In this document: positions 882-62,881 of the stretch, piece by piece
Layout of the letters: every line of letters begins with the position of its first letter
How positions within the stretch are numbered: the first letter of the stretch is position 1
DNA from: an uncultured Pseudomonadales bacterium
GTDB taxonomy: Bacteria > Patescibacteriota > Microgenomatia > UBA1400 > CG1-02-47-37
Direction: 5' to 3'
Assembly (NCBI GenBank): GCA_964630755.1
Contig: CAZVYS010000003.1
Span: forward strand, 1-63,136
DNA: 63,136 nucleotides
The notes under the pieces: model-generated
Database searches by the model: none
Told to the model about the DNA's origin: nothing
The model's input: the letters and a program-made list of their open reading frames with translations, nothing else
Position numbers and translations under genes: made by a program

Positions 882-1250
882 TTAATAAAAAAACAGCTCT
901 TGCCACTTCCTAATACTGCTCAACTCTCTTTCATCATCTAATAAATCCATCACTTCCAAATCAGCTGTTTTTATCACCTCTTCTGGTATTATCACAATTT
1001 CTTCATTAGGCTTCGCCATCTTCAGCTTATTTCTCACTTGAGTTTCCCACCACTCGCCTGTTTCTATTTCCTTTAAATTCTGTTCTAATAAAAACTGCTC
1101 TTGCTTTGCATTTAATAAATCTTGTTCTGCCTCGCTAATTCGATCATCAGTGCGACTTAGTTTAATAATATCTTTAACTAGCCTAATCGACATCATCACA
1201 CTAATTACCATAATAATATACGCTAGAAGCCTCTTCTTCCCAGTTGACAT
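882..1250 (-). CDS. FtsB/DivIC-like septum formation initiator
   Basis: 122 aa with an N-terminal TM helix followed by a coiled-coil (EAEQDLLNAKQEQFLLEQNLKEIE); the architecture matches FtsB/DivIC. Confidence 0.55.
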   Translation of the reverse strand: MSTGKKRLLAYIIMVISVMMSIRLVKDIIKLSRTDDRISEAEQDLLNAKQEQFLLEQNLKEIETGEWWETQVRNKLKMAKPNEEIVIIPEEVIKTADLEVMDLLDDERELSSIRKWQELFFY

Positions 1251-1282
1251 CTATCCTCCTTGCTGGTATTATAAGATACTTT

Positions 1283-2152: not shown

Positions 2153-2156
2153 ATTG

Positions 2157-2230
2157 TAGGCGCGGCTGGACTCGAACCAGCGACCGCCAAGGTATAAGCT
2201 TGGTGCTACTACCAACTGAGCTACGCGCCT
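2157..2230 (-). tRNA. tRNA-Ile with anticodon UAU
   Basis: Hand-folded cloverleaf: acceptor AGGCGCG/CGCGCCT, anticodon stem CCAAG/CTTGG with loop CTTATAC, T arm GCTGG-TTCGAGT-CCAGC, discriminator A. No encoded CCA. Confidence 0.85.
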
Positions 2231-2257
2231 TTATAACTGCTGTATTTTACCATAAGT

Positions 2258-2557
2258 TTACTTATCAACTTTTACTATCATCGGCTGTCCGCCTTTTCCA
2301 TCACACGCCCGCGTCGCACCATCTATCTCAGTCACAAACTGCCTACCACATCCATCTTCTCCTCCACATTTTGGCACCACACCGCTCCGCCAAAATCCTG
2401 GCTGATCAATTACTGCCCTAACTTCTTGCTTCGATCTGGCAGCTACCGGAAAATAAACAGCCTGGTCAAACCGACCACCACATCCCTCATCCCTTGGATG
2501 AATAAATGACACTAACCAAGTTTCAGATTCGGTTTTCATTCGCCTATTATACCCCAA
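2258..2557 (-). CDS. hypothetical small Cys/Gly-containing protein
   Basis: 99-aa ORF in a locally GC-richer patch; no recognisable motif. Confidence 0.35.
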   Translation of the reverse strand: MGYNRRMKTESETWLVSFIHPRDEGCGGRFDQAVYFPVAARSKQEVRAVIDQPGFWRSGVVPKCGGEDGCGRQFVTEIDGATRACDGKGGQPMIVKVDK

Positions 2558-2571
2558 CCTTACAACTCAAC

Positions 2572-7010: not shown

Positions 7011-7698
7011 AGCCTGTCTCTAGTTTACACTTTTTTCGCCAGTCTTTTACTGGCTTTACTCCAAACTCTTTCAATAAATTCTCAAGATACTCAAGCGGAA
7101 AACCCAATACATTAGTAAAAGAGCCTTTAATTTCTTTTACCAAACTCCCATATCCCGGTAACTGATACCTAATACTATACCCTCCCCCCTTGTCTAACAC
7201 TTCAAACTTTTTTAAATAATCTTCAATAATCTTTTCCTTATAAGCCTTCATCTTCACCTTAGTTTCACACACGCTTAATCTTCCCTCTTCAGATTTAGAA
7301 TCAACCAAAGCTACTCCACACCAAACCGAGTGAGTCTTGCCACCTAAACTCATCAACATCTTCTTGGCTTCTTTTTTATCTCTAGGCTTTCCTATCTGTC
7401 TTCCCTCAAGCTCCACAATCAAATCCGATCCAATAATTAAACTTCTCTCTTCACTTTCCCCTCGGCTTTTACCAATGGTCGAATGGTGAATACCATTCGT
7501 CGAGGATTTTTTGCTAAGTTCACCCGGCGAATGCCGGGGATTGCTAGCCTTTAACATACTAAGTTCCGCCACCAAGTCCTCACCACTATCTGCCTTTATT
7601 TTCGCCTCGTCAACCTTATGCCCAACTACCTTAAAAGGTAAGCCCATCCACTTAAGTAGCTCCTTTCTTCTTGGTGACTCTGAAGCTAAATAGAGCAT
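7000..7698 (-). CDS. maf: Maf-like nucleoside triphosphate pyrophosphatase, carrying an internal repeat-derived insertion
   Basis: MLYLASESPRRKELL N-terminus and IIGSDLIVELEGRQIGKPRDKKEAKKML core. An extra segment SNPRHSPGELSKKSSTNGIHHSTIGKS is encoded by repeat copy A. Confidence 0.85.
   Translation of the reverse strand: MLYLASESPRRKELLKWMGLPFKVVGHKVDEAKIKADSGEDLVAELSMLKASNPRHSPGELSKKSSTNGIHHSTIGKSRGESEERSLIIGSDLIVELEGRQIGKPRDKKEAKKMLMSLGGKTHSVWCGVALVDSKSEEGRLSVCETKVKMKAYKEKIIEDYLKKFEVLDKGGGYSIRYQLPGYGSLVKEIKGSFTNVLGFPLEYLENLLKEFGVKPVKDWRKKCKLETGYER
7471..7539 (+). repeat. GAAT-loop double-hairpin repeat, copy A (inside maf)
   Basis: accaatggt-CGAATGGT gaat ACCATTCG-spacer-CCCGGC gaat GCCGGG. 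Confidence 0.85.
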
Positions 7699-9911: not shown

Positions 9912-9935
9912 TGCAGACAGAAGTGCAGCGTTTTG

Positions 9936-11852
9936 TCATACACTACACTTGCTCCACCCGCATTCCATGCAAATAGCGCAACCCTCCTTTATTTCTAAAC
10001 TGCCCCCGCAATCCATACACATATCCTTATTTACTCTCAACACTTGATCTTCTTTAGATCCATCTCTGTAAATCGTTATCCCTTTACAACCTTGTTTCCA
10101 GGCTTGCAGATAAGCTTTTTTCACCTCATCAACACTCGCTTTCTTAGCAAAATTAATTGTTTTACTCACACTATTATCAAAGTTCTTCTGCCAAGCAGCT
10201 TGAATCTTTACATGATATTCCCAATCCACTTCATGAGTGGTAACAAATACTCGCCTAAATTTTACTGATATTTCTTTAATTTTCCCCATAGATCCCGTAC
10301 TAGCCAACTGACCCAATATTTCCTGTCTTCTTTTTTTATCCTTAACCTGACTCCTTAAAAACTCTTCAAACACTGGGTCAACTATTACCAACTCTCTGGT
10401 CGGCCGATTATCTTTATCATCCTCAAAAAATGTTCTTCTCAAAGTCACCAACGAAAACACCGGCTCTATTCCACTACTGCAATCTGCAAACAAACTAATT
10501 GTTCCTGTTGGCGCTATCATCGTGGTTGCACAATTCCTTCGTCTCTTTCCTCCAGCATAAATACTCACATCATAATTTGGAAAACTACCTCTTTCTTCTC
10601 CTAATTTCTCGGTTTCTCTATCAGCTTCTTTTCTAATAAAATGACTCAATTTCTCGGCTAACTTAACCGCTGCCTGACTGTTATATGCTATTTCTAGTTT
10701 ATAAAGCAAATGGGCAAACCCCATCACTCCTAGCCCAATTCTTCTATTACCCTCCTTAACCATCTTTTCATTTTTCTCCAAAGGATAACTATTCGCCTCA
10801 ATCATATTATCCAAAAACCTTACCCCCAAAGAAATTGACTTCTTAAGTTCCTTATAGTCCACTTCATACCGACCATTGGCCAATTTCTTTACATGATTAG
10901 AAAGCACTATGCTAGTCAAGTTGCAGTTCTCATACGGCAACATGGCTATTTCCCCGCAGGGATTAGTTGTCTCAATCCTTCCTAAGCTTGGCGTTGGGTT
11001 ATCCTTATCCATTGCATCAATAAAAGCCATCCCCGGATCTCCGCTTAAATGGGCTTGCTTGCAAATCTTAAAAAACAACTTATCCGCCCTTATTTTCTTC
11101 ACTACCTCATTAGTTCTAGGATTAACTAAAGCCCACATCTTTTTAGCCTCTACCGCCTTCATAAACTTATCAGTCACCCCCACCGACACATTAAAGTTTT
11201 TTAAATTTCCATCTTCAGCCTTCATCTCAATAAACTCTTCAATATCAGGATGTGTAACATTCAAAATCGCAATATTAGCTCCCTGTCTTTTTGCTCCTTG
11301 TAAAATTTTAGATAAAGCAGCACTAAACGCTTTAATAAAATCAACCGGGCCCGAAGCCGCTCCAATCACATTCTTAACCTTATCCCCATGAGGCCTAATC
11401 TTGGAAAAATTAAAACCAGTTCCTCCATTGTTTTTATGAACCACCGCAGCCTCACCTAATGTTTTAAAAATCGACTGAATACTATCTTCAATCGGCAACA
11501 CAAAACACGCCGCCATCTGTCCTGTTCCCCCTGGATTTCCAGCTTCAAACATAGCCTTTCCACTACAAACAAACTTTTTACTCACCATTCGCTCATAGAA
11601 CAACTCCGCAGTCTCTCTAACTTTACTATCTATAGCCGCAAGGGATGAATACCCCTTGCCCTTTAAACTCTTTGCAAACTTTACCCGGCGAATGCCGGGC
11701 CACAACACTTCAGGTTTAGCCATGTGTTGAGCCACTCGCCACAACATCTCCCCCACGCTCTCTACTAACCGACCCTTTTGATTAGCCATCAAGTATCTCT
11801 TTTGAGTTATCTCTAAGGCAGTTTTGGATTGCTTTGGTTCTATTATCTTCAT
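9936..11852 (-). CDS. nrdJ: class II ribonucleotide reductase paralogue (no ATP-cone), with internal repeat insertion
   Basis: 638 aa with ACFVLPI, TNPCGEIAM, CNLTSIVL and C-terminal CMDCGG...CAICMECG. Repeat copy B encodes the segment WPGIRRVKFAKSLKGKGYSS. Confidence 0.92.
   Translation of the reverse strand: MKIIEPKQSKTALEITQKRYLMANQKGRLVESVGEMLWRVAQHMAKPEVLWPGIRRVKFAKSLKGKGYSSLAAIDSKVRETAELFYERMVSKKFVCSGKAMFEAGNPGGTGQMAACFVLPIEDSIQSIFKTLGEAAVVHKNNGGTGFNFSKIRPHGDKVKNVIGAASGPVDFIKAFSAALSKILQGAKRQGANIAILNVTHPDIEEFIEMKAEDGNLKNFNVSVGVTDKFMKAVEAKKMWALVNPRTNEVVKKIRADKLFFKICKQAHLSGDPGMAFIDAMDKDNPTPSLGRIETTNPCGEIAMLPYENCNLTSIVLSNHVKKLANGRYEVDYKELKKSISLGVRFLDNMIEANSYPLEKNEKMVKEGNRRIGLGVMGFAHLLYKLEIAYNSQAAVKLAEKLSHFIRKEADRETEKLGEERGSFPNYDVSIYAGGKRRRNCATTMIAPTGTISLFADCSSGIEPVFSLVTLRRTFFEDDKDNRPTRELVIVDPVFEEFLRSQVKDKKRRQEILGQLASTGSMGKIKEISVKFRRVFVTTHEVDWEYHVKIQAAWQKNFDNSVSKTINFAKKASVDEVKKAYLQAWKQGCKGITIYRDGSKEDQVLRVNKDMCMDCGGSLEIKEGCAICMECGWSKCSV
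11627..11700 (+). repeat. GAAT-loop double-hairpin repeat, copy B (inside nrdJ paralogue)
   Basis: tatctatagccg-CAAGGGat gaat acCCCTTG-ccctttaaactctttgcaaacttta-CCCGGC gaat GCCGGG. Confidence 0.85.
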
Positions 11853-13750
11853 GACACACTACACCTTGAATAGCCACACGACAAACAAGTCGCACAGCCT
11901 TCTTTAAAACTTAATTCTCCCCCACACTCTGGACATAGCTCTTCTTGACTATGACCATTCCCAACCCATTTTCTTTGATTATCAACAATCGGATCACTCC
12001 CACTTTGACCTACTCCTGCATTCAAGACCTGCCTCGCCTTACTACCATCCCGATAAACCGTAATCCCTTTACACCCTGTTTGATAAGCCAACTCATAAGC
12101 TTCCTTAACATCGTCAGGCGACGCTGATCTAGACATATTAATCGTTTTTGAAACCGCTGCATCAATGTGCTTTTGCCAAGCTGCCTGCATCTTAATATGT
12201 GTTCTAAAATCTATCTCATGACTCACTTTAAACAACTCCTTAACATCTTTTGGCACGTTTACTATCTCGCTCACTCCTCCAGTCTCACTTACCTCCTTCA
12301 TTAACTCTTTTGAATAAAACTTTCTCTCTTTGGCCACTTTCAAAAACAAATCATTTGCTTCAAGCAACTCAGTATTATCCACATCCAAAATATTCTTTCT
12401 TATATACGACAAGGCAAACAAAGGCTCAATTCCACTACTACAATTGGCAATAATACTAATAGTTCCAGTTGGCGCCACTGTATTAACAGTACTATTCCGC
12501 ATCCCTTTAAAGCCTTGCTTCTCCCAATCACTACCTTTAAAGCCAGGAAACGAGCCTCTTTCTTTAGCTAGCTTTTGTGACTCACTAATAGCCGTGTCAT
12601 GAATAAACTTACTAATTCTCTCCCCCATTCTCAAACCTTGATTTGAATCATAAGCTATCTTTAGCTTTACCAGCATATCTGCAAACCCCATTACTCCTAA
12701 ACCAATCTTTCTAGTCTTTTTAGTCTGTTTATCTATCTCTGGCAATGGATACTTACAAATATCTATCACATTATCCAAAAACCGCACAGCTACTTGAACC
12801 AAATTCTCTATTTTCCTCCAGTTCACCTCCATCACCATTCCTCTACCTCTTTTTTTTCTCTTAACACACTTAGATAAATTAATGCTACCTAAATTACAAC
12901 TTTCATAAGGGAGTAACGGCTGCTCTCCGCAAGGATTAGTCGTTTCTATTCTTCCTAAATGCTTAATCGGACTAGCTTCATTCATCTTGTCAATAAAAAC
13001 CATCCCCGGATCTGCTGTCTTCCAAGCTTGAAAAGTAATCATATCAAGCACTCTAGAAGCCGAAATCTTTTTAACTACTTTAGTTCCAGTTTGCTCCGAC
13101 TCTCCATTGGGAATTCTCAACTCATACTCTTTCCCATTTAAAGCCGCCTTCATAAACTCATCTGTCACTCCCACTGAAATATTAAAATTTCTTACCTCTT
13201 CTTCAACCCCTTTTGCAAAAACAAAATCCATAATATCAGGGTGATGAACATCCATCACCGCCATTAAGGCTACTCTCCGACTAGAACCCTCGTTAATCAC
13301 TTCAGCTGCTTCGTTATAAAGCTTTAAAAAAGAAATTGGGCCAGAGGTAATTCCACCAGTTGATCGAATTCTTGATCCTCTAGGTCGCAAGTTAGACAAA
13401 GGAATGCCTACCCCACCGCCAGTCCTAGCAATCGTGGCCATCTCTTCCATCGAATTAAAAATACTCTCCAACGAATCAACTAAGGGCAGCACAAAACACG
13501 CCGATAATTGATTAAACTTAGTTCCTGCATGCATTAAAGTTGGCGAGTTTGGTAAAAACTCCAACTTACTCATCACCTTGTAAAACTTTTTCTCCCACTT
13601 GCTTCTATTCTCTTTCTTTTCAATCTTTGATATCGCTTTAGCCACCCTCCTAAACATCTGATCAGGCTTTTCAACCACTCTTCCTTCTTTATCTTTTTTT
13701 AGATAATCTCGCTTGGTCAAAACTGTTAAGGCATTATCTGACAACTTCAT
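11849..13750 (-). CDS. nrdJ: class II ribonucleotide reductase paralogue (no ATP-cone)
   Basis: 633 aa with [24 protein letters not shown] and C-terminal CPECGG...CATCLSCG. It overlaps both neighbouring genes by 4 nt. Confidence 0.92.
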
Positions 13751-14193
13751 TTAATCTCCTTAACTAACTTGGTAAAATCTTTAATTTTATCAAAATCCAA
13801 ATAAACACTGGCAAACCGAACATAAGCCACCTTATCAAGCTTCTTTAGCCGTTTTAAAATCGCATTCCCAACTAACTTACTACTAACTTCACCATTCTTT
13901 TTCCTCATCATCTCTTGCTCAACCTGATCTACTATTTTCTCTATTTTATTAATACTCACCGGCCTCTTCTCACAAGCCCTCACCACTCCTTTTCTCAATT
14001 TTTCTCGGTCAAAGCTCTCTCTCTTATCATCCTTTTTTACTACTTGAAGCTGAGGCCCCTCTATTCTTTCATAAGTCGTAAATCTTTTGGTGCATTTATT
14101 ACACTCCCTTCTTCTCCTGGTAACTGTCTCGTCCTCGCTATCACGAGACTCTAATACTGATGATTCGTTATTATCGCAAAATGGACATTTCAT
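13747..14193 (-). CDS. nrdR: transcriptional repressor NrdR
   Basis: MKCPFCDNNESSVLESR...CNKCTKRFTTYERIE zinc ribbon followed by an ATP-cone. Confidence 0.95.
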   Translation of the reverse strand: MKCPFCDNNESSVLESRDSEDETVTRRRRECNKCTKRFTTYERIEGPQLQVVKKDDKRESFDREKLRKGVVRACEKRPVSINKIEKIVDQVEQEMMRKKNGEVSSKLVGNAILKRLKKLDKVAYVRFASVYLDFDKIKDFTKLVKEIK

Positions 14194-17911: not shown

Positions 17912-17950
17912 AGTTAACCGCTATTGTGCCATATTTGCTACAATACGTCT

Positions 17951-20278
17951 ATGCCTGAATCCAAGCAAAGTCTTAAAACTTCTATCAATAACTTGAAGGC
18001 AACAACAAAGCTAAAAATCTTTAAACTAACAAAAATTCTTAAGACTTCTATCCATAGCTTAAGGGTGAATACCCTTAAAACAATTAAAAACCTTGCAAAC
18101 TTTAGGGGACGAATATCCCCTCGTCAATTTGCTTTTATCATTATTCTTCTAGTTGGTTTAATCATCTTCATGTTCACCATTTTAAAAGACCTCCCTTCTC
18201 CATCCAGGCTTTCATCTGATGAATTTCCCGTCTCTACTAAAATTCTTGATCGTAATGGTCAAATTCTTTACGAAATTTATGCTGATCAAAACAGAACTCC
18301 AATTAAAATCAAAGATCTGCCAGACTATGTATTAAAAGCCACCATTTCTATTGAAGACAAAAACTTTTACAAACATCATGGCTTTGATCTGCAAGGAATC
18401 TCTCGGGCTTTTTTAAATACTCTATTTAAACAAAATCTCCAAGGCGGCTCCACCATCACCCAACAACTAGTCAAAACCACTCTTTTATCACCGGAAAGAA
18501 CCATCAAGAGAAAGCTCAGAGAAGCTATTTTGGCCTTAGCTACCGAGCTTCGTTACTCTAAAGACGAAATTATTCAGATGTATCTTAACCACGTTCCTTA
18601 TGGTGGCACTGCCTATGGCATCGAGCAAGCCAGCTTAACCTATTTTAATAAATCAGCTAAGGACTTAAAACTAGAAGAAGCCGCTCTTTTAGCTGGCCTT
18701 CCCCAGGCGCCTACCCGGTACTCCCCTTTTGGTTCTAATCCCGACGCTGCTAAAAATCGTCAAGCCAATGTTTTAAAACGCATGTTCGAAGATGACTACA
18801 TTGACTCTGATCAACTCCAATCCGCCTTAGACACCAAACTTGAATACGCTCCTCAATCTCAAAACATCCTCGCTCCCCACTTCTCTCTTTTTATCAAAGA
18901 TCTTTTAGTTGAAAAATATTCTCAGCCCGTCGTAGAAAAAGGTGGTTTAATCGTCACTACCTCTCTTGATCTAGACATTCAAAAGCAAGCCGAAATCATT
19001 ATCGCCACCGAAAGCGCCAAACTAGAATCAGCTAACGTCAGTAACGCAGCCGCCCTAGTTACCAAACCAAGAACTGGAGAAATCCTCGCCATGGTTGGCT
19101 CCCGTGACTACTTTAACGCTGAAATCGATGGTAATGTTAATATTACTACTCGACTTCGTCAACCCGGTTCTTCTATCAAGCCCATCAACTACGCTGTTGG
19201 TTTAATCAAAGGCCATACTCCAGCCACTATGTTTCTTGACGTTCCCTCTTGCTTTAATGCTCCAGGTCAACCCTCTTCATATTGCCCCAAAAACTACGAC
19301 AATACCTTTCACGGCCCAACCCATATGCGTTTTGCTCTTGGCAACTCCTACAACATCCCCGCCGTCAAAATGCTTGCCAGTAATTCAGTTGAGGCCATGG
19401 TCGCCACTGCCTCAGCCATGGGAATTACATCTTATCAAGATCCAAAAAACTATGGCCTATCCCTTACCCTTGGTGGTGGTGAAGTTCGCATGATCGACAT
19501 GGCAGTTGCTTTTGGAGTTTTCAGCAATCAAGGCTTAAAAGTCGACCTTACTCCTATTCTTAGCGTTAAAGACTATCATGGCAACGTCTTAGAAAGCATT
19601 AATCTTGAAACCGAAATACCAGCCGGCGAAAAAGCCATTTCCCCAGAAGTAGCCTACCTTATCTCCCACATGTTGCTCGATAACAATGCCCGAGTCGGCG
19701 CTTTTGGTTCAAGCTCTGAGCTAGTCATCCGTGACCACACTGTTTCCGCTAAAACCGGCACCACCGATGACCTTCGAGATAACTGGACGATTGGCTTTAC
19801 CCCTTCGTACTTAGTCTCAACTTGGGTCGGCAACAACGACAACACCCCCATGCACCCCTACTTAGTCTCTGGTGTTTCTGGCGCCGCTCCCATCTGGCAC
19901 GACATCATGGAATATGTTCTTAAAGATGAACCTGACGAATGGCCCAAAAAACCAGACACTATTATTGGCCTTCAAGTCTGTAACCTAACTGGCCTTAGAC
20001 CCAATCCCGAATCCCCTTGCGAAACTAGATACGAATACTTTATCAAAGGCCAAGAACCAAACATGGAACCAATTCTTAAACGTGACATCTGGATCGACAA
20101 ATCCACCAAACGCCCACCCGTTCAAGGCAAAACCGACGACCTTGAGTTACAAGAACATATTGTTGTCTCAGACCCCGTCCAAAAAGACTATTGTGTTGAT
20201 TGTGAAAAAGAAATTGATGAGGAAGGTAAAATCAAAGAAGCTCCTTACACCATTAACATCTACCCGCCGGAAGAATAA
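17951..20278 (+). CDS. class A penicillin-binding protein (transglycosylase/transpeptidase), PBP1A-like
   Basis: GT51 motifs EDKNFYKHHG and GGSTITQQLVK, plus transpeptidase motifs SSIK, SYN and KTGTT. TGcTACAAT-N6-ATG precedes 17951. Confidence 0.9.
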   Translation: MPESKQSLKTSINNLKATTKLKIFKLTKILKTSIHSLRVNTLKTIKNLANFRGRISPRQFAFIIILLVGLIIFMFTILKDLPSPSRLSSDEFPVSTKILDRNGQILYEIYADQNRTPIKIKDLPDYVLKATISIEDKNFYKHHGFDLQGISRAFLNTLFKQNLQGGSTITQQLVKTTLLSPERTIKRKLREAILALATELRYSKDEIIQMYLNHVPYGGTAYGIEQASLTYFNKSAKDLKLEEAALLAGLPQAPTRYSPFGSNPDAAKNRQANVLKRMFEDDYIDSDQLQSALDTKLEYAPQSQNILAPHFSLFIKDLLVEKYSQPVVEKGGLIVTTSLDLDIQKQAEIIIATESAKLESANVSNAAALVTKPRTGEILAMVGSRDYFNAEIDGNVNITTRLRQPGSSIKPINYAVGLIKGHTPATMFLDVPSCFNAPGQPSSYCPKNYDNTFHGPTHMRFALGNSYNIPAVKMLASNSVEAMVATASAMGITSYQDPKNYGLSLTLGGGEVRMIDMAVAFGVFSNQGLKVDLTPILSVKDYHGNVLESINLETEIPAGEKAISPEVAYLISHMLLDNNARVGAFGSSSELVIRDHTVSAKTGTTDDLRDNWTIGFTPSYLVSTWVGNNDNTPMHPYLVSGVSGAAPIWHDIMEYVLKDEPDEWPKKPDTIIGLQVCNLTGLRPNPESPCETRYEYFIKGQEPNMEPILKRDIWIDKSTKRPPVQGKTDDLELQEHIVVSDPVQKDYCVDCEKEIDEEGKIKEAPYTINIYPPEE
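18049..18122 (+). repeat. GAAT-loop double-hairpin repeat, copy C (PBP N-terminal tail)
   Basis: tatccatagc-TTAAGGGT gaat ACCCTTAA-aacaattaaaaaccttgcaaacttt-AGGGGA cgaata TCCCCT. Confidence 0.85.
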
Positions 20279-20283
20279 AACTC

Positions 20284-20356
20284 TAATAATTTCTGAATGG
20301 CGAATGCCATTCAAACTTCTGAAACCTTTGCAAGCTTTAGGGAGCGAATGCTCCCC
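20284..20356 (+). repeat. GAAT-loop double-hairpin repeat, copy D (intergenic)
   Basis: TGAATGGC gaat GCCATTCA-aacttctgaaacctttgcaagcttta-GGGAGC gaat GCTCCC. Confidence 0.9.
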
Positions 20357-20376
20357 CTTTTTCTATTCTTATAGGG

Positions 20377-20382
20377 TATAAT
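20377..20382 (+). promoter_or_regulatory. -10 box (TATAAT) 7 nt upstream of the PBP start codon; probable leaderless promoter
   Basis: TATAAT-actctcc-ATG with no Shine-Dalgarno sequence. Confidence 0.4.
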
Positions 20383-20389
20383 ACTCTCC

Positions 20390-22942
20390 ATGGTTAAAAG
20401 TAGACAAAATAGTCTATTATCCAACCCTTTAGCTTGGGTTGGTTTTGTATTGGAAACAATTGGTCGATCTACCTATAAATCACTCTTCTTCTTAATTAAA
20501 TTAACTTTCAAAGTTATCTTATCTACTATTAATTTCTTGAGGATGAATATCCTCAAATCTCTTAAGTCCTTTAACCGAATTTATCAAGGTTTACCCGGAG
20601 AATTTCGGGCGAATGCCGGAGTTCAATTAATTAAACTCTTGTCAGAAGTTAAAAACATCTTTAACAACGCTTTTAAACAAGCCTCTGATCAATTATCTGT
20701 TAAGCAACTCAAACTCAAATACCCTAAAGTCCGAAAACTTTTACCAGAAGTTAAATGGCGAATGCCATTTATCCATAAATTCTTTAACCGAATTCACCCT
20801 GCGACTGCAGGGCAAAAATTAGCTCTCAGTTTTTTCTTTATTTCTATCAGTCTCTTTTACTGGTTTATCATAAAAGATCTCCCTAAACCGACTGATCTTA
20901 CCAATCGCTTACCCACTCTTTCAACTAAAATCTACGACCGAAACCAAAAACTTCTCTTTACCTTTTACAAAGATCAAAACCGCACTCTTATTTCCCTAGA
21001 CGACATTCCCGAGCATTTTAAACAAGCCACTCTAGCTATCGAAGACCAAGACTTTTACCGCCACAATGGTTTCTCATGGCCAGGTATTTTTAGATCCTTA
21101 GAACAAATCGTTTTTAACCAACAACTTCAGGGCGGTTCTACCATCACTCAACAGCTAATTAAAAACGCACTTCTGACTCCCGAACGAACCATGAAACGAA
21201 AGCTCAAGGAGCTTATCTTAAGCATTGAAGTCGAACTTTTATATTCTAAAGATGAAATTCTGGAAATGTACTTTAACGAAGTAGCATACGGCGGTACCGC
21301 TTATGGAGCTGAACAAGCTAGTCAAACCTATTTTGGTAAATCCATCAAAGATGTCACTTTAGCCGAAGCTGCTCTTTTAGCTGGCCTGCCTGCCTCGCCT
21401 ACCACCTACTCCCCTTTTGGCTCTAATCCTCATTTGTCAGCTTATCGTCAACATCAAGTCTTAAACCGAATGGTCAAAGAACAATACATTGCCCCCTTAG
21501 AAGCCGAGTTAGCCAAAGATCAAAAAATTAAACTAGCTCCACAATATACCAATATCAAGGCTCCCCACTTTGTTATGTATGTAAAACAACTACTCGTTGA
21601 CCAATTTGGAGAGGCTTTAGTCGAACAAGGCGGCTTAACTGTCACCACCTCTCTCGATCTTAATCTGCATAATCAAGTTCAACAAATAGTCACTGATGAA
21701 ATTCAAAAAGTAGCCATGTTAAACATTTCTAACGGAGCTGCTTTAGTAACCAATCCTCAAACCGGTGAAATTTTAAGCATGGTTGGCTCTCGAAACTATT
21801 TTGACACTGATAAAGACGGCCAAGTTAATCTCACCACTGCCCTCAGGCAACCTGGCTCTGCTATCAAACCAGTCAACTATTCAGTTGCCCTTGAAAATGG
21901 CTACACAGCCGCCACCGTTATTAATGACTCTCCTATCACTTATGATATCGCCGGTTCAAAACCTTACTCTCCCCGTAACTACGATGGCCGCTTTCATGGC
22001 AACGTCACTCTTCGTTCTGCTTTAGCTAACTCCTACAATATCCCGGCTGTTAAAGTTTTAGCTAGCTACGGCGTTGACAAAATGATCGAACAAGGCCAAA
22101 AACTAGGCATCACCACCTGGAATCAACCCGAACGATATGGTTTATCTCTTACCCTAGGTGGCGCCGAAGTCAAAATGACTGACCTGGCAGTTGTTTTCAG
22201 CACCTTAGCCAATCAAGGCAATAAAATTGATCTTCATCCTATCCTAAAAGTTACTGACGCCAAAGGAAAAACTCTTTTAAACTTTGACTGCAACAAAACC
22301 ATCGCCGAATCCATTCCTCGTTCTATCAATAGCTTAGGGGTGAATACCCCTAAAACTACTAAATCTTTGCAGAATTTACCCGGCGAATGCCGGGCGAGCC
22401 AACCAAATCAAATCCTTAATCCACACACAGCTGCCATCTTAACCAACATTCTTTCCGACCCTCTCGCTCGAACTCCCGCCTTTGGCACTCGATCTTACCT
22501 AAACATTCCAGGGCATGTTGTGGCTGTTAAAACCGGCACCACCAATGACAAACGAGACAACTGGACTATCGGTTACACCACTGATTATCTTGCTGCTGTC
22601 TGGGTTGGCAATAACGACAACACCCCTATGTCTCAAGTTGCTTCTGGCATCACTGGTGCTTCTCCCATCTGGCATAACATCATGAACAAAGTCTTAGAAA
22701 ATCAACAATCACACCAATTCTCTTATCCTACTGACTTACTAAAAGCCGACATCTGCCCCATCACCGGCCAACTATCTTGTGAAGGCTGCGGTGGAAAAAT
22801 TGAATACTTTGTCAAAGGCACCGAGCCCAAACTCCGCTGCAAACCTGAATACATTCAACAACTAAAAGACGACCAAGCTAAAAAAGATCAGGAAGAGGCA
22901 GAAAAAAGAAACCAACTTCTCGAGGGAATTTCTACCAACTAA
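20390..22942 (+). CDS. class A penicillin-binding protein, second tandem paralogue, carrying repeat insertions
   Basis: EDQDFYRHNG, GGSTITQQLIK, SAIK, SYN and KTGTT. A long N-terminal tail holds repeat copies E and F, and copy G lies inside the transpeptidase region. An alternative start at the ATG inside copy F cannot be excluded. Confidence 0.9.
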   Translation: MVKSRQNSLLSNPLAWVGFVLETIGRSTYKSLFFLIKLTFKVILSTINFLRMNILKSLKSFNRIYQGLPGEFRANAGVQLIKLLSEVKNIFNNAFKQASDQLSVKQLKLKYPKVRKLLPEVKWRMPFIHKFFNRIHPATAGQKLALSFFFISISLFYWFIIKDLPKPTDLTNRLPTLSTKIYDRNQKLLFTFYKDQNRTLISLDDIPEHFKQATLAIEDQDFYRHNGFSWPGIFRSLEQIVFNQQLQGGSTITQQLIKNALLTPERTMKRKLKELILSIEVELLYSKDEILEMYFNEVAYGGTAYGAEQASQTYFGKSIKDVTLAEAALLAGLPASPTTYSPFGSNPHLSAYRQHQVLNRMVKEQYIAPLEAELAKDQKIKLAPQYTNIKAPHFVMYVKQLLVDQFGEALVEQGGLTVTTSLDLNLHNQVQQIVTDEIQKVAMLNISNGAALVTNPQTGEILSMVGSRNYFDTDKDGQVNLTTALRQPGSAIKPVNYSVALENGYTAATVINDSPITYDIAGSKPYSPRNYDGRFHGNVTLRSALANSYNIPAVKVLASYGVDKMIEQGQKLGITTWNQPERYGLSLTLGGAEVKMTDLAVVFSTLANQGNKIDLHPILKVTDAKGKTLLNFDCNKTIAESIPRSINSLGVNTPKTTKSLQNLPGECRASQPNQILNPHTAAILTNILSDPLARTPAFGTRSYLNIPGHVVAVKTGTTNDKRDNWTIGYTTDYLAAVWVGNNDNTPMSQVASGITGASPIWHNIMNKVLENQQSHQFSYPTDLLKADICPITGQLSCEGCGGKIEYFVKGTEPKLRCKPEYIQQLKDDQAKKDQEEAEKRNQLLEGISTN
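20524..20621 (+). repeat. GAAT-loop double-hairpin repeat, copy E (expanded second hairpin)
   Basis: tactattaatttc-TTGAGGAT gaat ATCCTCAA-spacer-CCCGGA gaat TTCGGG overlapping TCGGGC gaat GCCGGA. Confidence 0.8.
20750..20813 (+). repeat. GAAT-loop double-hairpin repeat, copy F (degenerate second loop)
   Basis: AAATGGC gaat GCCATTT-atccataaattctttaaccgaattca-CCCTGC gact GCAGGG. Confidence 0.75.
22324..22395 (+). repeat. GAAT-loop double-hairpin repeat, copy G (inside PBP transpeptidase region)
   Basis: tatcaatagc-TTAGGGGT gaat ACCCCTAA-aactactaaatctttgcagaattta-CCCGGC gaat GCCGGG. Confidence 0.9.
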
Positions 22943-56754: not shown

Positions 56755-58188
56755 ATGATTCCCACCTACCTAAAATCTCGTTCTTACCAACCTGCTAATC
56801 CAGATACTCTCTATCACCCCAGCGACCAAAAAACCTTTACTAAAACCATTCCCTTACCCAAAGACTTTTTTATTGCCGGTGCCGACGCTGCTTATCAAGT
56901 TGAAGGCACTCCTCCAGACTCCCTTCCCACCATTTGGGACACCTTCACTACTCAAAAAAAACTTACCCCCGCAGACCTTGGCATTGGTCGCTACCAACAC
57001 TACCAAAAACACGCCCAACTCATCATCAATCTTGGCTCCAAACACTACCGCACCTCTATCTCTATCTCTCGCATTCTAAATAAAAACGGCCAACCAAACC
57101 AAAAAGCTATCACTTGGTACCAAAACTACTTCAAACTGCTTCAAAAAGCTAACATCAAAATCTATCCCACTCTCTACCACTGGGAATTGCCTGCTTACCT
57201 TAAAAACGGCTGGAAAAATCCCCAATCAGTTGACCTGCTTGTCAAACACGCCCAGGTTGTTACCAAGCACCTTGATCAATACATCGAGGAATACTTTGTC
57301 TTAAACGAACCTTGGTGCAGTTCTTTGCTTAGCTATCACTTAGGCATTCACGCACCCGGCGAAACAAATCTCCAAGGCGCCCTTCTAGCCGCTCATCATC
57401 TCTTGCTTGGTAATGCCAAAGCTTTAAAAGCTAACAAAACAAAAAAACCACAGCCCAAGGTCAGTACCGTTCTCAACTTTGAACCAGCCTATCCGGCCAC
57501 CAACTCCAAATCCAACTTAACAGCCGCCAATCTAGCTGATGGTTACTACAATCGTTGGTTTATTGATCCAATTTACAAAGGCTCATACCCCAAACACATG
57601 ATCAAACACTACACCAAGAATAACGTCATGCCTCAACTTGAAAAAAAAGACCTCTCCACTATTCACCTTGGCTCTAAGCTTCACTCTTTAGGCGTAAACT
57701 ACTATCGCCCTTCTCTGGTTAAATCACTCGATAATCCCAAACCCAACCAGCCTCCATATCAATCAATCGTTCTCAAAGATGAACCCACCAACGACCTCGG
57801 TTGGCCAATTAACCCTATTGGCTTATTTGACTTACTTAACCAACTATACTCAGAATACAAATCTCACGGCCTCAATCAAATCTACATCACCGAAAATGGT
57901 CTCGCCCTCAACACCCCTCTTAACCCCCAAACAAAAACTATCAATGACTCCAAGCGCATCCAGTTCTTTAAGCAACATTTTTACCAAGTCGTAAAGGCCA
58001 TTAAGGCAGACATACCAATAAAGGGTTTTTTTATCTGGACCTTGTTTGATAACTTTGAATGGAGCGAAGGCTACAAACCAGAATCCTGCTTTGGCTTTAT
58101 CCACGTTGACAAAAATCAACAATGCTTTCCTAAAAAAAGCTACTTCTGGCTTCAGAAGCTCATCAAGTCTCGCCTCTTAGCCCCCTAG
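56755..58188 (+). CDS. GH1 beta-glucosidase
   Basis: LNEP acid/base motif and ITENG nucleophile motif, FEWSEGY. Confidence 0.9.
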   Translation: MIPTYLKSRSYQPANPDTLYHPSDQKTFTKTIPLPKDFFIAGADAAYQVEGTPPDSLPTIWDTFTTQKKLTPADLGIGRYQHYQKHAQLIINLGSKHYRTSISISRILNKNGQPNQKAITWYQNYFKLLQKANIKIYPTLYHWELPAYLKNGWKNPQSVDLLVKHAQVVTKHLDQYIEEYFVLNEPWCSSLLSYHLGIHAPGETNLQGALLAAHHLLLGNAKALKANKTKKPQPKVSTVLNFEPAYPATNSKSNLTAANLADGYYNRWFIDPIYKGSYPKHMIKHYTKNNVMPQLEKKDLSTIHLGSKLHSLGVNYYRPSLVKSLDNPKPNQPPYQSIVLKDEPTNDLGWPINPIGLFDLLNQLYSEYKSHGLNQIYITENGLALNTPLNPQTKTINDSKRIQFFKQHFYQVVKAIKADIPIKGFFIWTLFDNFEWSEGYKPESCFGFIHVDKNQQCFPKKSYFWLQKLIKSRLLAP

Positions 58189-58848
58189 CTCACTGACAGG
58201 ATCACTGACAGGGTCTGACCCTGTCACAATCGGCATAATATAAGTTATCGTTTTTCTAGGAATATCATAAATCTCAATTCCAATCTCAGATTCCGCATAT
58301 CCTTTGTCTTGCCAGTGTTCTTGAATCACCGGATAAACCCTCATCGGTCCGATCATATAAGAAAGCATGGTTTTAATCGGAAACTCCACTACCATTGCTT
58401 GCATTGCCTCATATTCCTTTACCTCAAATTTCTCTCTCACTTCCACCAGTTTTTCCGCACTCAAGCCTTCAATCAAGCTGCCTACCTCACTTCTCAAATC
58501 CTCCTCTGCTGTTATTTTTGGATCACCATAATACACCCCCACCCCTCGAATCGGTTCTATCCCCATACCCACCAATCCTTCATACACTTCATCCATTGGT
58601 TTCTTGGTTTTTGTATAAGCACCTTTATGCTCCTTAACCGCCATCACCATCGCCGGCACTTGTTTTTCCACTACCACTGGCTTACTAAATCCCCCGCTAT
58701 ACCCCCATACTCCTCCTCCGACTAATACTGACCAAAAAATTGTTGCAAATATTTTTCTTGCCCAAAAACAACCCTTAGGGCACTCACTCTTACATCCACA
58801 AACACACTTGCACTCTTTCTTTTCTTTTTTCTTTTTGGTTTTTTTCAT
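58177..58848 (-). CDS. membrane-anchored GyrI-like small-molecule-binding domain protein
   Basis: Lys/Cys-rich N-terminus (CKCVCGCKSECPKGC), a TM helix, then a GyrI-like domain (HKGAYTKT...GVYYGDP). Confidence 0.6.
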   Translation of the reverse strand: MKKTKKKKEKKECKCVCGCKSECPKGCFWARKIFATIFWSVLVGGGVWGYSGGFSKPVVVEKQVPAMVMAVKEHKGAYTKTKKPMDEVYEGLVGMGIEPIRGVGVYYGDPKITAEEDLRSEVGSLIEGLSAEKLVEVREKFEVKEYEAMQAMVVEFPIKTMLSYMIGPMRVYPVIQEHWQDKGYAESEIGIEIYDIPRKTITYIMPIVTGSDPVSDPVSELGG

Positions 58849-58918
58849 AAAACCTCCTGCAAGTTTTTAATTACTTATATTTTAACCAACGTGTTAAACT
58901 AAATCAAAGGAGGCTTAT

Positions 58919-59347
58919 ATGTCAAAATCAAAATTCGTTCTTAAAAAAAATCCAGGCCTAACTTTACTCACCACCCTCTATCTATTCTTCTTTGTTAACT
59001 CAGTCGTAATCCTACTAACAAACTACTTTTTCCCCAGTCATATTGTTCTTGGCACCAGTCATATCTCAAAAACATGGGCCGTCATTCACTCTATGAGCAC
59101 TTTAGCTTTTATCAACGCCTTTGCTATTCCTTTTGCAAGAGAACTAGAAAGAATCAAAGGTCGCCCACTTGCTCATAAAGAATGGGTGATTAAATACTTT
59201 GCCCTAAACTTTATTTCTCTTTGGGTTATCGCCCGTTTAGCTGAACAACTTGGCCTTGGTCTATCATCTTGGCTCGTTGTTTTTGCTCTAGCTGTAGTTT
59301 TCGACATCACTCAAGGCATTGCCATAATGTGGTTTAAAAAACAATAA
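58919..59347 (+). CDS. hypothetical 4-TM membrane protein
   Basis: 142 aa with a strong SD AAAGGAGG upstream. Confidence 0.6.
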   Translation: MSKSKFVLKKNPGLTLLTTLYLFFFVNSVVILLTNYFFPSHIVLGTSHISKTWAVIHSMSTLAFINAFAIPFARELERIKGRPLAHKEWVIKYFALNFISLWVIARLAEQLGLGLSSWLVVFALAVVFDITQGIAIMWFKKQ

Positions 59348-59353
59348 AGATAC

Positions 59354-60046
59354 TTACACCAAGGCCTGATACTCAAAAAAACTAAAAGCTGCTTTTTTAT
59401 CAAGCTTTCTACACTCTTGCTTAATTGTCTCTAAACTTTCCATAACTTTTGGTTTTGCTAAAAACAGCATTACCTGTTTTTCTTCATCACTCGCCCGCCT
59501 CAACTTAACCTCTAAGCAATTCTCCTCAAAAATCCTTATCACTCGAGAAAGTTTTTGATGTTTTTCAAAAACAACTTCAACATGAAGCGCTTTTCTTTCT
59601 AAAAACTTGTCCTTCATTTTGCCAGATAAAAACGCCTGTCCAAACACTACTAGTAATATCAGTCCAAAAAACACACTTGTTAAACCTATTTGGCCAGCTC
59701 CAAACCCTAGTCCTAAAGTAATAGCTAAAAAGATATACACCAACTCCTCTGGATCTTTAATTGCCGACCTAAATCTAACAATCGATAAAGCACCCACTAA
59801 CCCTAAAGATAAAGTCAGAGACACTTTAATAATCGAAATAATCAACATAGTTGTCATAGCCATCACTGGGAAAATTGCCGCCAGCCGCCACCTATTAGAT
59901 AAACTCCTTCCCACCCAAACATAAACCAGTGACAACAAACTAGAAAGTAAAATCAATAACCCCACCCTGAGTAAAATCTTTATCACTTCAAATCCTAAAT
60001 TACTTTCTAACCAAAAATTAATTGAATCTAATACCATAAATATCAA
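59354..60046 (-). CDS. DUF4956 membrane protein
   Basis: LGLVGALSIVRFRSAIKDPEELVYIF signature. Confidence 0.75.
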   Translation of the reverse strand: MIFMVLDSINFWLESNLGFEVIKILLRVGLLILLSSLLSLVYVWVGRSLSNRWRLAAIFPVMAMTTMLIISIIKVSLTLSLGLVGALSIVRFRSAIKDPEELVYIFLAITLGLGFGAGQIGLTSVFFGLILLVVFGQAFLSGKMKDKFLERKALHVEVVFEKHQKLSRVIRIFEENCLEVKLRRASDEEKQVMLFLAKPKVMESLETIKQECRKLDKKAAFSFFEYQALV

Positions 60047-60061
60047 TCAGTATATCATTTT

Positions 60062-61468
60062 TTACATCCACTGCTCACTTTTTTCTAAATACTCAATCGT
60101 TCTATTGTAAAAAGCGCCCGGCCTGTTTATTACAAATTCTTTTAATAACTCTACCCGTCTCTCCCATTCTTCAATACTGCCTACCACTTGATAATCACTT
60201 TCAGATGACTCACTCCCCCACCTCTTAATCTGTTTCTGCATTTCCGGCCTTATTTCCTCAGCTAATTCATCTATTATCTTAACTGCTTTTTCCCCACTTA
60301 ACCCATCTTCAACTAATTCCTCTACTCTATGTAAATATCTTCTCCGAAAACCTTGATCAAAAAACAAATTTCGAAACAAAAAAGCATCATCTAATAACAA
60401 ATTATAACTATCTGTCTTAGCTGAAATTCTCATCTTTTCCTTTGTTTCTGTACTTGAGCCAAAACCTACGTCCAAATCAAACAATAACCATCTAAATCGA
60501 CCATCTAGCACTTCGAGTTCGTCAAGATTTATTCCTTTCATTGGCTCCACCTTAAACCGCCATGCCTTTATATTGTTATTTGGCCAATCTTGATTCATAA
60601 AAAATAATTCAAGCAGCAAATAATCAAGTAAATTACTAGCATCAACTCTATCTTGAATTGAAGTATATCCTTCACACCCTCCGCACGCACGAACAGCACT
60701 TAAAATCAAATTATACCTTTTCGCTTCAGGCATATCTCCTTTATCTACTGCAACTGCCTGTCCTCGATCCTCTCCACTCCTCAACGGTACTTCTATCATT
60801 CCTAGCATGCCTGGCCTAATTCGATACTTTTCCTTAAAATACTCATCATCATATCTTTCTTGCAAAAGATATAAACCCCAATACTCGTTATTCAAATAAA
60901 CCACTACTGGTCGTCCTAACTGCACTTCTAAATCCGAAACACTCTTAGCTAATCGACTTGCCAGCTGATCTCTCATCATTGTTAAATTACTGTCACTCAC
61001 TCGTAAAACCAAGCTCCCGTATCGACTATTTCCCTCTTCTCCAAAAAATGGATACTCAAACATTGAATTTTCCCCCTCATTATCTTTTGCTAATAATCGA
61101 AACGCTTTTTGAGGCATTGATCTCATATTCCACCCATGAAGCCTCAGCCCTATATTTTGACTTAGCTCAAGCTTGCCTTCTTTGTCGTAATAATTCAAAA
61201 CAGCTTCCCGTTCCCAAGCATCTCCTGTTTGATATATATTCTCATTCTCACCCTTAACATAAATGCCTATTTCTTCATCCCACAAATTATCTGGATTAGT
61301 AGTAATCGCCAAAACTGGCAAATCATGCTCCTGTCCTTGCCATATTTCCTCAACTCTTGAAAAGCTCTTGCTAAGCCAAAAAGCCAACCAACCCACCACA
61401 ATCAAAGCTATTAAAAACGTCATCATCCACCACTTTCCCAACATTCTTTTTCGTTTCTTTAGCCACAT
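60062..61468 (-). CDS. CotH kinase family protein, membrane anchored
   Basis: 468 aa with an N-terminal TM helix. Also LRLHGWNMRSMPQKAFRL and a CotH-like core. Confidence 0.7.
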   Translation of the reverse strand: MWLKKRKRMLGKWWMMTFLIALIVVGWLAFWLSKSFSRVEEIWQGQEHDLPVLAITTNPDNLWDEEIGIYVKGENENIYQTGDAWEREAVLNYYDKEGKLELSQNIGLRLHGWNMRSMPQKAFRLLAKDNEGENSMFEYPFFGEEGNSRYGSLVLRVSDSNLTMMRDQLASRLAKSVSDLEVQLGRPVVVYLNNEYWGLYLLQERYDDEYFKEKYRIRPGMLGMIEVPLRSGEDRGQAVAVDKGDMPEAKRYNLILSAVRACGGCEGYTSIQDRVDASNLLDYLLLELFFMNQDWPNNNIKAWRFKVEPMKGINLDELEVLDGRFRWLLFDLDVGFGSSTETKEKMRISAKTDSYNLLLDDAFLFRNLFFDQGFRRRYLHRVEELVEDGLSGEKAVKIIDELAEEIRPEMQKQIKRWGSESSESDYQVVGSIEEWERRVELLKEFVINRPGAFYNRTIEYLEKSEQWM

Positions 61469-62109
61469 AGCTGCACTCCCATCATGTACTTAGAAGACTT
61501 AGATATCCTTAACGGCCAATCCTGAACAATTCTATCAAGCCACTTGTCATTCTTAACCTTATACTTTGCTTCTAAAATAGTCCCTTGTAGTCGATTAACC
61601 ATTCTTTTCTTATTAAAATCTCTGATATGTTGAAATCTTAAATCACTATCAATCGTCACTCTTATCTGATGAGCCTCAGTTCTAAAATACTTCCTTTCAT
61701 AAGAATTAACCATGACTGGACACAGATCATAAGCTTCGCTTGCCGACAACTTCAACCACTCACGCACATGTTTTTTTAACTTATTTAAACCTATCTTATT
61801 AATATCCTGCTTTAATTTATATACTTCTTTTCTTAATACTTCTCCATCTCTCATTTTTACTTCAAGTTGTACCGGACTTAACTTTTCATCATGCTCATAC
61901 CACCTTACTCTTACTTTTTTTCTTCTTTGCCCCCCCATTAAATTTTGTTGATAATACAACTTGTCAGGAGTGTCAAAATACATTGACCACACTCGTCTTT
62001 GATAATACAACTGTTTAAAATAAGAAGCCCCTGTTTTCAAAAAACCTTCCAGTTGATCTGGTAAATAATCCTCTGTTAAATACTTCCTTTCATATCGAAA
62101 CTGGGTCAT
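61459..62109 (-). CDS. VTC (polyphosphate polymerase / triphosphate tunnel) domain protein
   Basis: FRYERKY and LEVKMR tunnel motifs; 216 aa. Overlaps the cotH-like start by 10 nt. Confidence 0.7.
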   Translation of the reverse strand: MTQFRYERKYLTEDYLPDQLEGFLKTGASYFKQLYYQRRVWSMYFDTPDKLYYQQNLMGGQRRKKVRVRWYEHDEKLSPVQLEVKMRDGEVLRKEVYKLKQDINKIGLNKLKKHVREWLKLSASEAYDLCPVMVNSYERKYFRTEAHQIRVTIDSDLRFQHIRDFNKKRMVNRLQGTILEAKYKVKNDKWLDRIVQDWPLRISKSSKYMMGVQLCG

Positions 62110-62137: not shown

Positions 62138-62881
62138 TTAATGTTCGTGTGGCACTACCAACAAAACCAAATACATCAAAATCACTCCCAAAAGCATTAC
62201 CCCCACTGCCTTGCTTTTTTCAAGCTCTTCGTCTGCGTGTGGCAAAAAATCACTCGCCCCAAGATAAAGAAACATCCCAGCCACCATTGCTAACAAATAC
62301 CCCACTACCACCCCACTAACATTCAAGTAATAAGTTAAAACCGCTCCCACCACCGTCATCAAAGCTGACACTAAGTTAACACCAAAAATCTTGCCTCTTT
62401 TCCAGCCGATTTTCAGCAAAATTCCAAAATCTCCAATCTCATGCGGCACTTCATGAAGTAAATTCGACACTGCTGTCACCAATCCCAAACCCGGATTAAC
62501 AAGATAACTAGCCGTTATCGCCACCCCATCCACCAAATGATGAATCATATCTCCCACCATCACCATCCAGGCTGATCCTTGATGGTCTTTACAACCACTG
62601 CCATGGTCATGATGGTGTAAATCACAACATAAATTCTCAAACAAATATGCTCCTAAAAAACTAAGTAAAGCCACCAAAAATCCTTTGTGGTCAATCAAAT
62701 GAATTGACTCAGGCAATAATCCTAACATTGCTACTGTCAAAAGCACACCTGCTGCAAACGGCACTGAATAGCTAGATAGTACCTTTGTCCATTTTTTCAC
62801 CGATAAAAACACCACTCCTACTATCAAAGCCACCACACTTCCCAGTAATGCCAGCAACACTATATTAACTATATCGTTCAT
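62138..62881 (-). CDS. ZIP-family divalent metal (zinc) transporter
   Basis: HEVPHEIGDF motif and a His-rich loop HHHDHGSGCKDHQGS. Confidence 0.88.
   Translation of the reverse strand: MNDIVNIVLLALLGSVVALIVGVVFLSVKKWTKVLSSYSVPFAAGVLLTVAMLGLLPESIHLIDHKGFLVALLSFLGAYLFENLCCDLHHHDHGSGCKDHQGSAWMVMVGDMIHHLVDGVAITASYLVNPGLGLVTAVSNLLHEVPHEIGDFGILLKIGWKRGKIFGVNLVSALMTVVGAVLTYYLNVSGVVVGYLLAMVAGMFLYLGASDFLPHADEELEKSKAVGVMLLGVILMYLVLLVVPHEH

Follow-up and report, generated by a model that had tools for sequence, protein, structure and literature searches.

In streptococci, clostridia and bifidobacteria, genes for a CotH protein, a polyphosphate polymerase and a DUF4956 protein, together with DUF4832, have been described as accessory genes contiguous with pelDEADAFG (bioRxiv 10.1101/768473, Whitfield et al.), and the Pel-operon papers assign these accessory genes no function. 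In S. intermedius the trio is SIR_1594/1593/1592, and mutants deleted for CotH or for DUF4956 aggregate less and have an altered level of Pel (PMC12345266). Here we describe the same three families, adjacent to each other, at the end of a 63,136-nucleotide contig (CAZVYS010000003.1, assembly GCA_964630755.1) of an uncultured bacterium that GTDB places in the Patescibacteriota. The window is this entire contig, and the genome comprises 1.02 Mb in 61 contigs and is 97.1% complete. The likeness extends to the products, since the predictions for the pel-linked set are likewise a secreted or anchored CotH, a cytoplasmic VTC-like protein and a membrane protein with an ACT tail. Unlike that set, the window is without pel genes and DUF4832, and its order is VTC-CotH-DUF4956.

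A further description can be recognised in the list of NELoc-2 genes of C. perfringens (2010, PMC2879425), where each of two VTC genes is followed by a gene for a cytoplasmic-membrane protein of 222-226 amino acids (aa) and then by CotH. From its size and location this protein is probably DUF4956 under another name. The list concerns a pathogenicity locus, has a resolvase between the two pairs and carries no functional proposal. The gene set itself is therefore not new, having been published as the pel accessory set, and the window adds context to it, not a first sighting. The sequence-only reading of this stretch had called the trio an uncharacterised system, none of whose bacterial components had an assigned function. 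This needs correcting, given the publication in Gram-positive pel operons and the deletion phenotypes in S. intermedius, and given that Bacillus CotH is a spore-coat Ser/Thr kinase (PMC7821199). No functional study of a bacterial VTC-like enzyme or of DUF4956 was found in a full-text literature search. In yeast, the VTC complex couples the synthesis of polyphosphate to its transit through a channel in the membrane (PMC9911596), and in bacteria PPK1 and PPK2 are credited with making this polymer (review PMC10657179). What is new here is the independence of the trio from Pel, the presence of two catalytic types of CotH in one genome of 1.0 Mb in which neither PPK1 nor PPK2 was found, and the apparent distant likeness of DUF4956 to MgtC. 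The three genes are the following.

61459-62109, minus strand: VTC-like gene, 216 aa
60062-61468, minus strand: CotH gene, 468 aa
59354-60046, minus strand: DUF4956 gene, 230 aa, with a TTG start and an ATG three codons in

The stop of the VTC-like gene overlaps the start of CotH by 10 nucleotides (nt) (61459/61468), while CotH and DUF4956 are 15 nt apart (60046/60062). In the public gene call CotH (P0024, 460 aa) begins 8 codons later, which leaves a short gap from VTC and no overlap. A convergent 142-aa membrane open reading frame (ORF) ends 6 nt past DUF4956, and it is therefore likely that the transcription unit stops there. A scan for consensus promoters and terminators was not informative, with 14 promoter-like sites where 11.9 were expected and not one terminator. 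The sequence-only reading had proposed these three tightly packed minus-strand ORFs and their domain assignments, and both are confirmed, the Pfam scores being 105.1 (VTC), 144.5 (CotH) and 54.4 bits (DUF4956) against cut-offs of 23, 23.8 and 30.6. None of the three proteins has a model in NCBIfam.

The trio is a genuine conserved module found over many phyla, in variable order. When 200 other genomes of the same phylum were searched, DUF4956 was present in 8, VTC in 10 (one match covering 52 columns and another being a contig-end fragment) and CotH in 7. The 8 DUF4956 genomes, which are spread over 7 families, all had VTC and 7 of them had CotH (Fisher one-sided p 8e-13 and 3.5e-12, respectively, values that are overstated since related genomes are not independent). 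In 6 of the same-phylum genomes a single contig carried the whole trio within about 4.5 kb, with three arrangements of the genes. Among 14 control genomes, VTC and DUF4956 were both found in B. thetaiotaomicron, C. glutamicum and M. acetivorans, and CotH in these and in B. subtilis.

A wider sample was anchored on DUF4956 and consisted of the 80 best-matching stretches out of at least 579, with one genome per species, scanned with iterated hidden Markov models (HMMs). It spans Bacteroidota, Planctomycetota, Verrucomicrobiota, Chloroflexota, Pelagibacteraceae, Gemmatimonadota, Myxococcota, a Woesearchaeota archaeon and others. Since the anchored loci are the best matches to our own query alignments, the HMMs were iterated and related genomes are not independent, the following counts should be read within that frame. 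Of the 80 loci, 63 have VTC, 66 a CotH-family protein and 54 both. The 5 loci with neither are all cut less than 1.3 kb from the gene on one side. When only the 51 loci with 4.5 kb or more on each side are counted, VTC was present in 47, CotH in 46 and both in 42, and no locus lacked both. The 66 CotH-family ORFs comprise 41 with a Pfam CotH match (in one batch of 33, 19 at E ≤ 1e-6; in another batch of 33, 22 above the cut-off) and 25 that are tied by BLASTP (E ≤ 8e-21) to at least 62% of the CotH region of a validated ORF. The 54 trios were in the orders (D, DUF4956; C, CotH; V, VTC) DCV (25), CDV (18), DVC (8), VDC (1), CVD (1) and VCD (1), counted as five gene orders and seven combinations of order and strand, and 52 of them lay on a single strand. 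The VTC-CotH-DUF4956 order on one strand seen in the window was absent from these distant trios and is common to its closest metagenome relatives (L087 and L089). A third sample, anchored on VTC, comprised 80 metagenome loci, 20 of them with at least 4 kb on each side; of these 20, 15 have DUF4956 together with CotH, 3 have neither, and each of the two families occurs in 16. The three families thus co-occur far beyond chance in the same-phylum, DUF4956-anchored and VTC-anchored samples, which was one of the two points on which the sequence-only reading could have failed.

The S. intermedius paper states that this synteny does not occur outside Pel loci (PMC12345266). Contrary to this statement, the module occurs without Pel. 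None of the 62 window proteins scanned is a pel product, PelG (PF16933) was not found in this 97.1%-complete genome, and it was also not found in 5 other module-bearing genomes.

A complete second module lies on contig C27 of the same genome, arranged CotH-VTC-DUF4956, and its VTC and DUF4956 proteins are only 26% and 17% identical to those of the window. The two parts of a broken DegT gene lie at the end of C27 and at the start of C29. These contigs therefore probably abut, and the joined locus of about 20 kb, a glycan locus, has 14 co-directional genes, including GT-C-like genes and two further CotH paralogues besides the module's own.

C27/C29 locus, genes in order: CotH-Metallophos fusion, CotH-Beta_helix, DUF6798, DegT, epimerase, GT2, CotH
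C27/C29 locus, continued: VTC, DUF4956, GT2, epimerase, two DUF2142/PMT_2 membrane proteins, PTPS-related membrane protein

The fusion of CotH to a calcineurin-like phosphoesterase (Metallophos) on C29 is 675 aa long (L083:4094-6118, minus strand) and adjoins a 729-aa CotH and beta-helix protein. Altogether the genome encodes six CotH paralogues, and the canonical D-N-D triad of catalytic positions is found in the window's alone; the others have H-N-D (C27), H-N-D (C29a), R-N-E (C29b), S-N-N (C52) and H-N-N (C6). A comparable division was seen in the metagenome CotH set, with D-N-D 15 times and H-N-D 13 times. Judged from these residues there are two module types, with an Asp-type and a His-type CotH, and this genome has one of each. 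Neither PPK1 nor PPK2 was found in the genome, and its Ppx-GppA match was under the cut-off of that family. The two VTC-like enzymes would therefore be the only recognisable polyphosphate synthases of this organism.

The VTC-like protein matches Pfam VTC (PF09359) with an E-value of 5.5e-30 over profile positions 2-233 of 235. The FRYERKY and LEVKMR motifs cited in the sequence-only reading are at residues 4-10 and 82-87. The hydropathy scan found no hydrophobic segment, and VTC was the only domain in the Pfam scan, which found neither an SPX domain nor a fused transmembrane domain. Searches of the single VTC and CotH sequences against solved structures gave chance matches only, and profiles of relatives (23 sequences for VTC and 24 for CotH) were needed for structural matches. 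The VTC profile matched yeast Vtc4 (3g3q) at E 1.7e-12. In the profile alignment to 8i6v_E, counted by hand, K9, R67 and R69 align with K200, R264 and R266 of Vtc4, so that these basic tunnel residues are kept (the second point on which the sequence-only reading could have failed), and all three are invariant across the 23 sequences, as is the Vtc4-type pattern of an R...K on the first strand together with the R-x-R pair. We take K200 of Vtc4 to have a catalytic role. The R264A/R266A/E426N variant of Vtc4 was used as a catalytically impaired form for the cryo-EM structure (PMC9911596), and the invariant E180 in the LEAKYK motif of the window's protein is likely to be the equivalent of E426. 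The AlphaFold2 (AF2) model of the VTC-like protein (pLDDT 89.3) had the tunnel domains of Vtc4, Vtc2 and Vtc3 as its best Foldseek matches (E 6e-11 to 7e-10, TMq 0.62-0.72). The top 11 rows listed were all Vtc4, Vtc2 or Vtc3 (E 6e-11 to 1e-9), with other tunnel enzymes following from E 7e-8. The protein is thus a candidate polyphosphate polymerase, for which the tunnel domain of the yeast VTC complex (Vtc4/Vtc3/Vtc1; 3g3q, 7ytj, 8i6v) is the best match in both sequence and fold. Unlike the yeast complex, the bacterial protein has neither SPX nor a fused transmembrane domain, its partner is the MgtC-like DUF4956 and not a Vtc1-type channel, and an exported kinase is added.

The window's CotH matches Pfam CotH (PF08757) at E 7e-42, and the profile of its 24 relatives matches B. 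cereus CotH (5jd9) at E 3e-7 over residues 41-357. Its D294, N299 and D331 align with D224, N229 and D247 of B. cereus CotH, and D224 and D247 correspond in turn to D228 and D251 of B. subtilis CotH, the numbering being four residues apart by a hand count. The D228Q and D251A variants of the B. subtilis protein are inactive (PMC7821199). In the close set the D294 column is Asp in 23 of 24 sequences and the D331 column in all 24. The hydropathy scan gave a single N-terminal hydrophobic segment (residues 9-37), preceded by six K/R among the first 12 residues, and the domain should therefore face outward, so that the catalytic part is predicted to lie outside the membrane. This bears out the membrane-anchored, extracytoplasmic kinase of the sequence-only reading, which had likewise described VTC as soluble and DUF4956 as polytopic. 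An N-terminal hydrophobic stretch was also present in 56 of 65 uncut CotH-family neighbours in other loci. Relatives of the window's CotH bear Fn3_assoc, CHB_HEX_C and LTD domains, and the extra domains of the CotH-family neighbours are Beta_helix, PKD, LTD and CHB_HEX_C. The likeness to Bacillus CotH (5jd9/5jda) therefore consists of a shared Pfam family, a match over the whole domain and retention of the D228/D251 equivalents. Unlike the Bacillus protein, which acts on the spore coat from within the mother cell, has no export signal and is linked to cotG and cotB, the window's CotH is membrane-anchored with its domain predicted outside, and is linked to VTC and DUF4956.

The DUF4956 protein matches PF16316 at E 1.6e-14, in a large family of which 4106 representatives match at E ≤ 0.001. 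The GALSIVRFR motif, also named in the sequence-only reading, is at residues 85-93, and the hydropathy scan indicates a polytopic protein. Its AF2 model (pLDDT 89.2) has five helices (17-45, 52-72, 76-93, 99-116 and 120-140) followed by a C-terminal region (151-229) of beta-alpha-beta-beta-alpha-beta topology, an ACT-like domain. This domain matches ACT-like and ferredoxin-like folds, including the C-domain of MgtC (2lqj), with VIA Z values of 7.5-9.4; the value for 2lqj itself is 7.5 and those for many ACT domains are 7.4-8.6, the fold being a common one. Conservation peaks in helix 3, the loop after it and helix 4, where R91, R93 and K97 are invariant. This patch would lie at the cytoplasmic face, and the ACT-like domain in the cytoplasm, since the distribution of K/R fits an N-out, C-in topology by the positive-inside rule. 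Weak Pfam matches to MgtC (PF02308) were found in 29 of 47 DUF4956 relatives (best E 3.4e-4), and none at E ≤ 1 in the window's own protein. Comparison by hhalign with five MgtC proteins gave a probability of 30% and an E-value of 5.5e-4 over 114 columns, and the Atlas features of DUF4956 and MgtC agreed at 0.75-0.78, under the 0.9 mark. These signals are consistent but weak, and from sequence and model DUF4956 looks distantly MgtC-like. The layout is similar to that of MgtC/SapB (2lqj), with comparable size and about five helices before an ACT-like domain; unlike MgtC/SapB, the window's protein falls below MgtC in Pfam and reaches only that 30% in hhalign. We know of no MgtC that pairs with a tunnel enzyme. 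The authors of the S. intermedius study label their own DUF4956 homologue MgtC-like (PMC12345266).

The genes that recur around the module in the 80 DUF4956 loci are epimerases (6), response regulators (6), GT2 (5), Wzy_C (4), GT4 (4 and 3) and MBOAT/AlgX (3 and 2), and in addition a Metallophos gene adjoins the module in 15 loci and an inorganic pyrophosphatase gene lies beside it in 5. From these neighbours the module appears to tend toward surface-glycan loci with added phosphate-handling enzymes. A generic CYTH-domain protein of 295 aa is encoded between DUF4956 and CotH in 4 loci (L013, L055, L064 and L071; for example L064:6576-7460). Since L055 is without a VTC match, the CYTH protein may stand in for VTC there.

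We propose, with a probability of roughly 0.4, that polyphosphate made by the VTC-like enzyme is passed out via DUF4956 and serves the chemistry of CotH outside the membrane. Like yeast Vtc4, the soluble VTC-like enzyme would convert ATP to polyphosphate, docked by DUF4956 on the inner side of the membrane. DUF4956, probably as an oligomer, would then carry the polymer, or a phosphoryl unit taken from it, to the other side. CotH has no ATP at its outside location and would draw on this supply to phosphorylate a surface glycan or glycoprotein or to attach a phosphate polymer. Polyphosphate made at the membrane for chemistry outside fits best because of the linkage of the three genes, the intact active sites, the outside location of CotH and the glycan context.

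Several observations weigh against this proposal, and its weak points are the role of DUF4956, for which nothing channel-like was seen and the nearest family is regulatory, and the phosphoryl donor of CotH. At E ≤ 0.001 Foldseek matched nothing to the membrane part of DUF4956, a wide structural search listed the C-terminal domain alone, and no likeness was detectable to the VTC channel, that is, to the DUF202-type transmembrane domains of Vtc1/3/4. MgtC itself is a known regulator, which acts on other membrane proteins by binding, and not a known channel (summarised in PMC12345266). Among the 150 best DUF4956 representatives, five over-long proteins were checked and none was a fusion with VTC; one had a weak match to a 3-keto-disaccharide hydrolase (E 2e-5, under the cut-off) and one a piece of SbmA/BacA. 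The coupled synthesis and translocation of polyphosphate with surface phosphorylation that was suggested in the sequence-only reading is an inference, which we share in part. On the enzyme side, the profile alignment ended at residue 395 of Vtc4, short of E426, and since 3 of the 20 full VTC-anchored loci were without either partner, the VTC-like enzyme can presumably work alone. The catalytic column in 66 distant module CotH proteins was His in 43 and Asp in 16, and therefore a single shared CotH chemistry is not assured. For S. intermedius, a preprint proposed that the polyphosphate stays cytoplasmic, and in the abstract of the published paper the deletions named as reducing aggregation are those of the CotH and DUF4956 genes alone (PMC12345266). 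No measurement of any step of the proposed mechanism was found in the literature searched. A complex prediction for VTC and DUF4956 from their alignments scored 0.00, which is no answer and counts neither way.

The cytoplasmic location favoured by those authors leads to a different explanation, which we consider unlikely, in which DUF4956, as a sensor or anchor similar to MgtC, tunes the polymerase via its ACT-like tail. CotH would then act outside on its own substrates with another donor, and the clustering would reflect a shared phosphate economy or envelope stress. The MgtC-like signals of DUF4956 in Pfam, hhalign, the Atlas features and the fold of its C-domain would be expected on this explanation, as would a membrane part unlike any channel, and ACT-like domains usually bind small ligands. 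It leaves unexplained why an exported kinase, without ATP, stands beside the polymerase in 42 of 51 full loci despite reshuffled gene order, and why exported phosphoesterases join the set. If instead the VTC-like enzyme were not a polymerase, it could cleave or transfer a tri- or pyrophosphate unit to give a small phosphorylated carrier, such as a lipid or a sugar, which DUF4956 would flip and CotH would use. The tunnel superfamily includes triphosphatases and cyclases, which were the next-best structural matches, and the generic CYTH genes inside the cluster, the neighbouring inorganic pyrophosphatases and the location of the module among polyprenyl-linked glycan genes would all suit such a carrier. 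We nevertheless regard it as rather improbable, given that the sequence and fold of the VTC-like protein are nearer to Vtc4/2/3 than to any hydrolytic tunnel enzyme and that the Vtc4-type R...K and R-x-R are invariant in its 23 relatives.

It is also conceivable that CotH is mainly a binding or structural surface protein, for example one that holds secreted polyphosphate or glycan, with its kinase fold incidental to the polyphosphate link. For fungal CotH invasins a binding role has been proposed, the large Beta_helix, LTD and PKD domains suggest such roles, and the predominance of His at the catalytic column of the distant module proteins points the same way, together with the several paralogues of this genome that are also without the metal-binding Asp. 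D294, N299 and D331 are, however, kept in the window's CotH and in 23 of 24 sequences of the close set (22 relatives and the window's own), and the retention of N299 in 53 and of D331 in 56 of the 66 distant proteins argues that the active site is under selection. We therefore consider a mainly structural CotH very improbable. The export of polyphosphate through DUF4956 for use by CotH is the explanation that we prefer to each of these.

Upstream of the module lies a fourth gene in the same direction, and the four minus-strand genes (ZIP, VTC, CotH and DUF4956) lie in the last 3.8 kb of the window.

62138-62881, minus strand: ZIP metal transporter gene (Pfam Zip, E 2.5e-31)

It is 28 nt upstream of VTC and may be co-transcribed with the module here. 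The ZIP-VTC-CotH-DUF4956 order was also found in L087, the closest metagenome relative, and no ZIP gene was near the module in any of 5 more distant module-bearing genomes of the same phylum. Since the synteny was confined to close relatives, we rejected ZIP as a core partner of the module. The closest named relative of the window's CotH is from Candidatus Beckwithbacteria.

On the other side of the module, an MFS transporter gene directly follows DUF4956 in L087, whereas the window has three extra genes between them (56755-59347). They are the 142-aa membrane ORF, which belongs to no family, a gene for a protein that is Cys-rich at its N-terminus and weakly GyrI-like, and a GH1 glycosidase gene in a stretch of higher GC content (0.43). 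GC skew is strongly negative across the whole contig (1-63136), at -0.30 to -0.48 per 4-kb window, and persists over plus-strand genes such as the two PBP genes (17924-22942) and the GH1 gene (56755-58188). This asymmetry is unusually strong and independent of gene direction. Elsewhere in the contig, a gene for an NrdR-like repressor is followed downstream by three successive genes for ribonucleotide-reductase large subunits of 741, 638 and 633 aa (7686-14193), and a tyrosine recombinase gene adjoins that of a 776-aa protein with weak matches to TrwB/TraG coupling proteins (1244-4902), a pair that may be the remnant of a mobile element.

A widespread link between a yeast-type polymerase and an exported kinase offers a testable answer both to the question of which phosphoryl donor can serve enzymes outside the cytoplasmic membrane and to that of polyphosphate synthesis other than by PPK1 and PPK2. 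It is possible, if doubtful, that bacteria and some archaea have a third route to polyphosphate, in which a Vtc4-type polymerase on an MgtC-like protein would supply polyphosphate, as a source of phosphoryl groups or of energy, to an exported CotH that modifies surface glycans, in an Asp and a His flavour, both of them present in this genome without a recognised PPK1 or PPK2. If this were true, DUF4956 and many non-spore CotH proteins would gain a function. The retention of two modules and six CotH paralogues in a reduced genome suggests that they are important for the cell surface of this organism.

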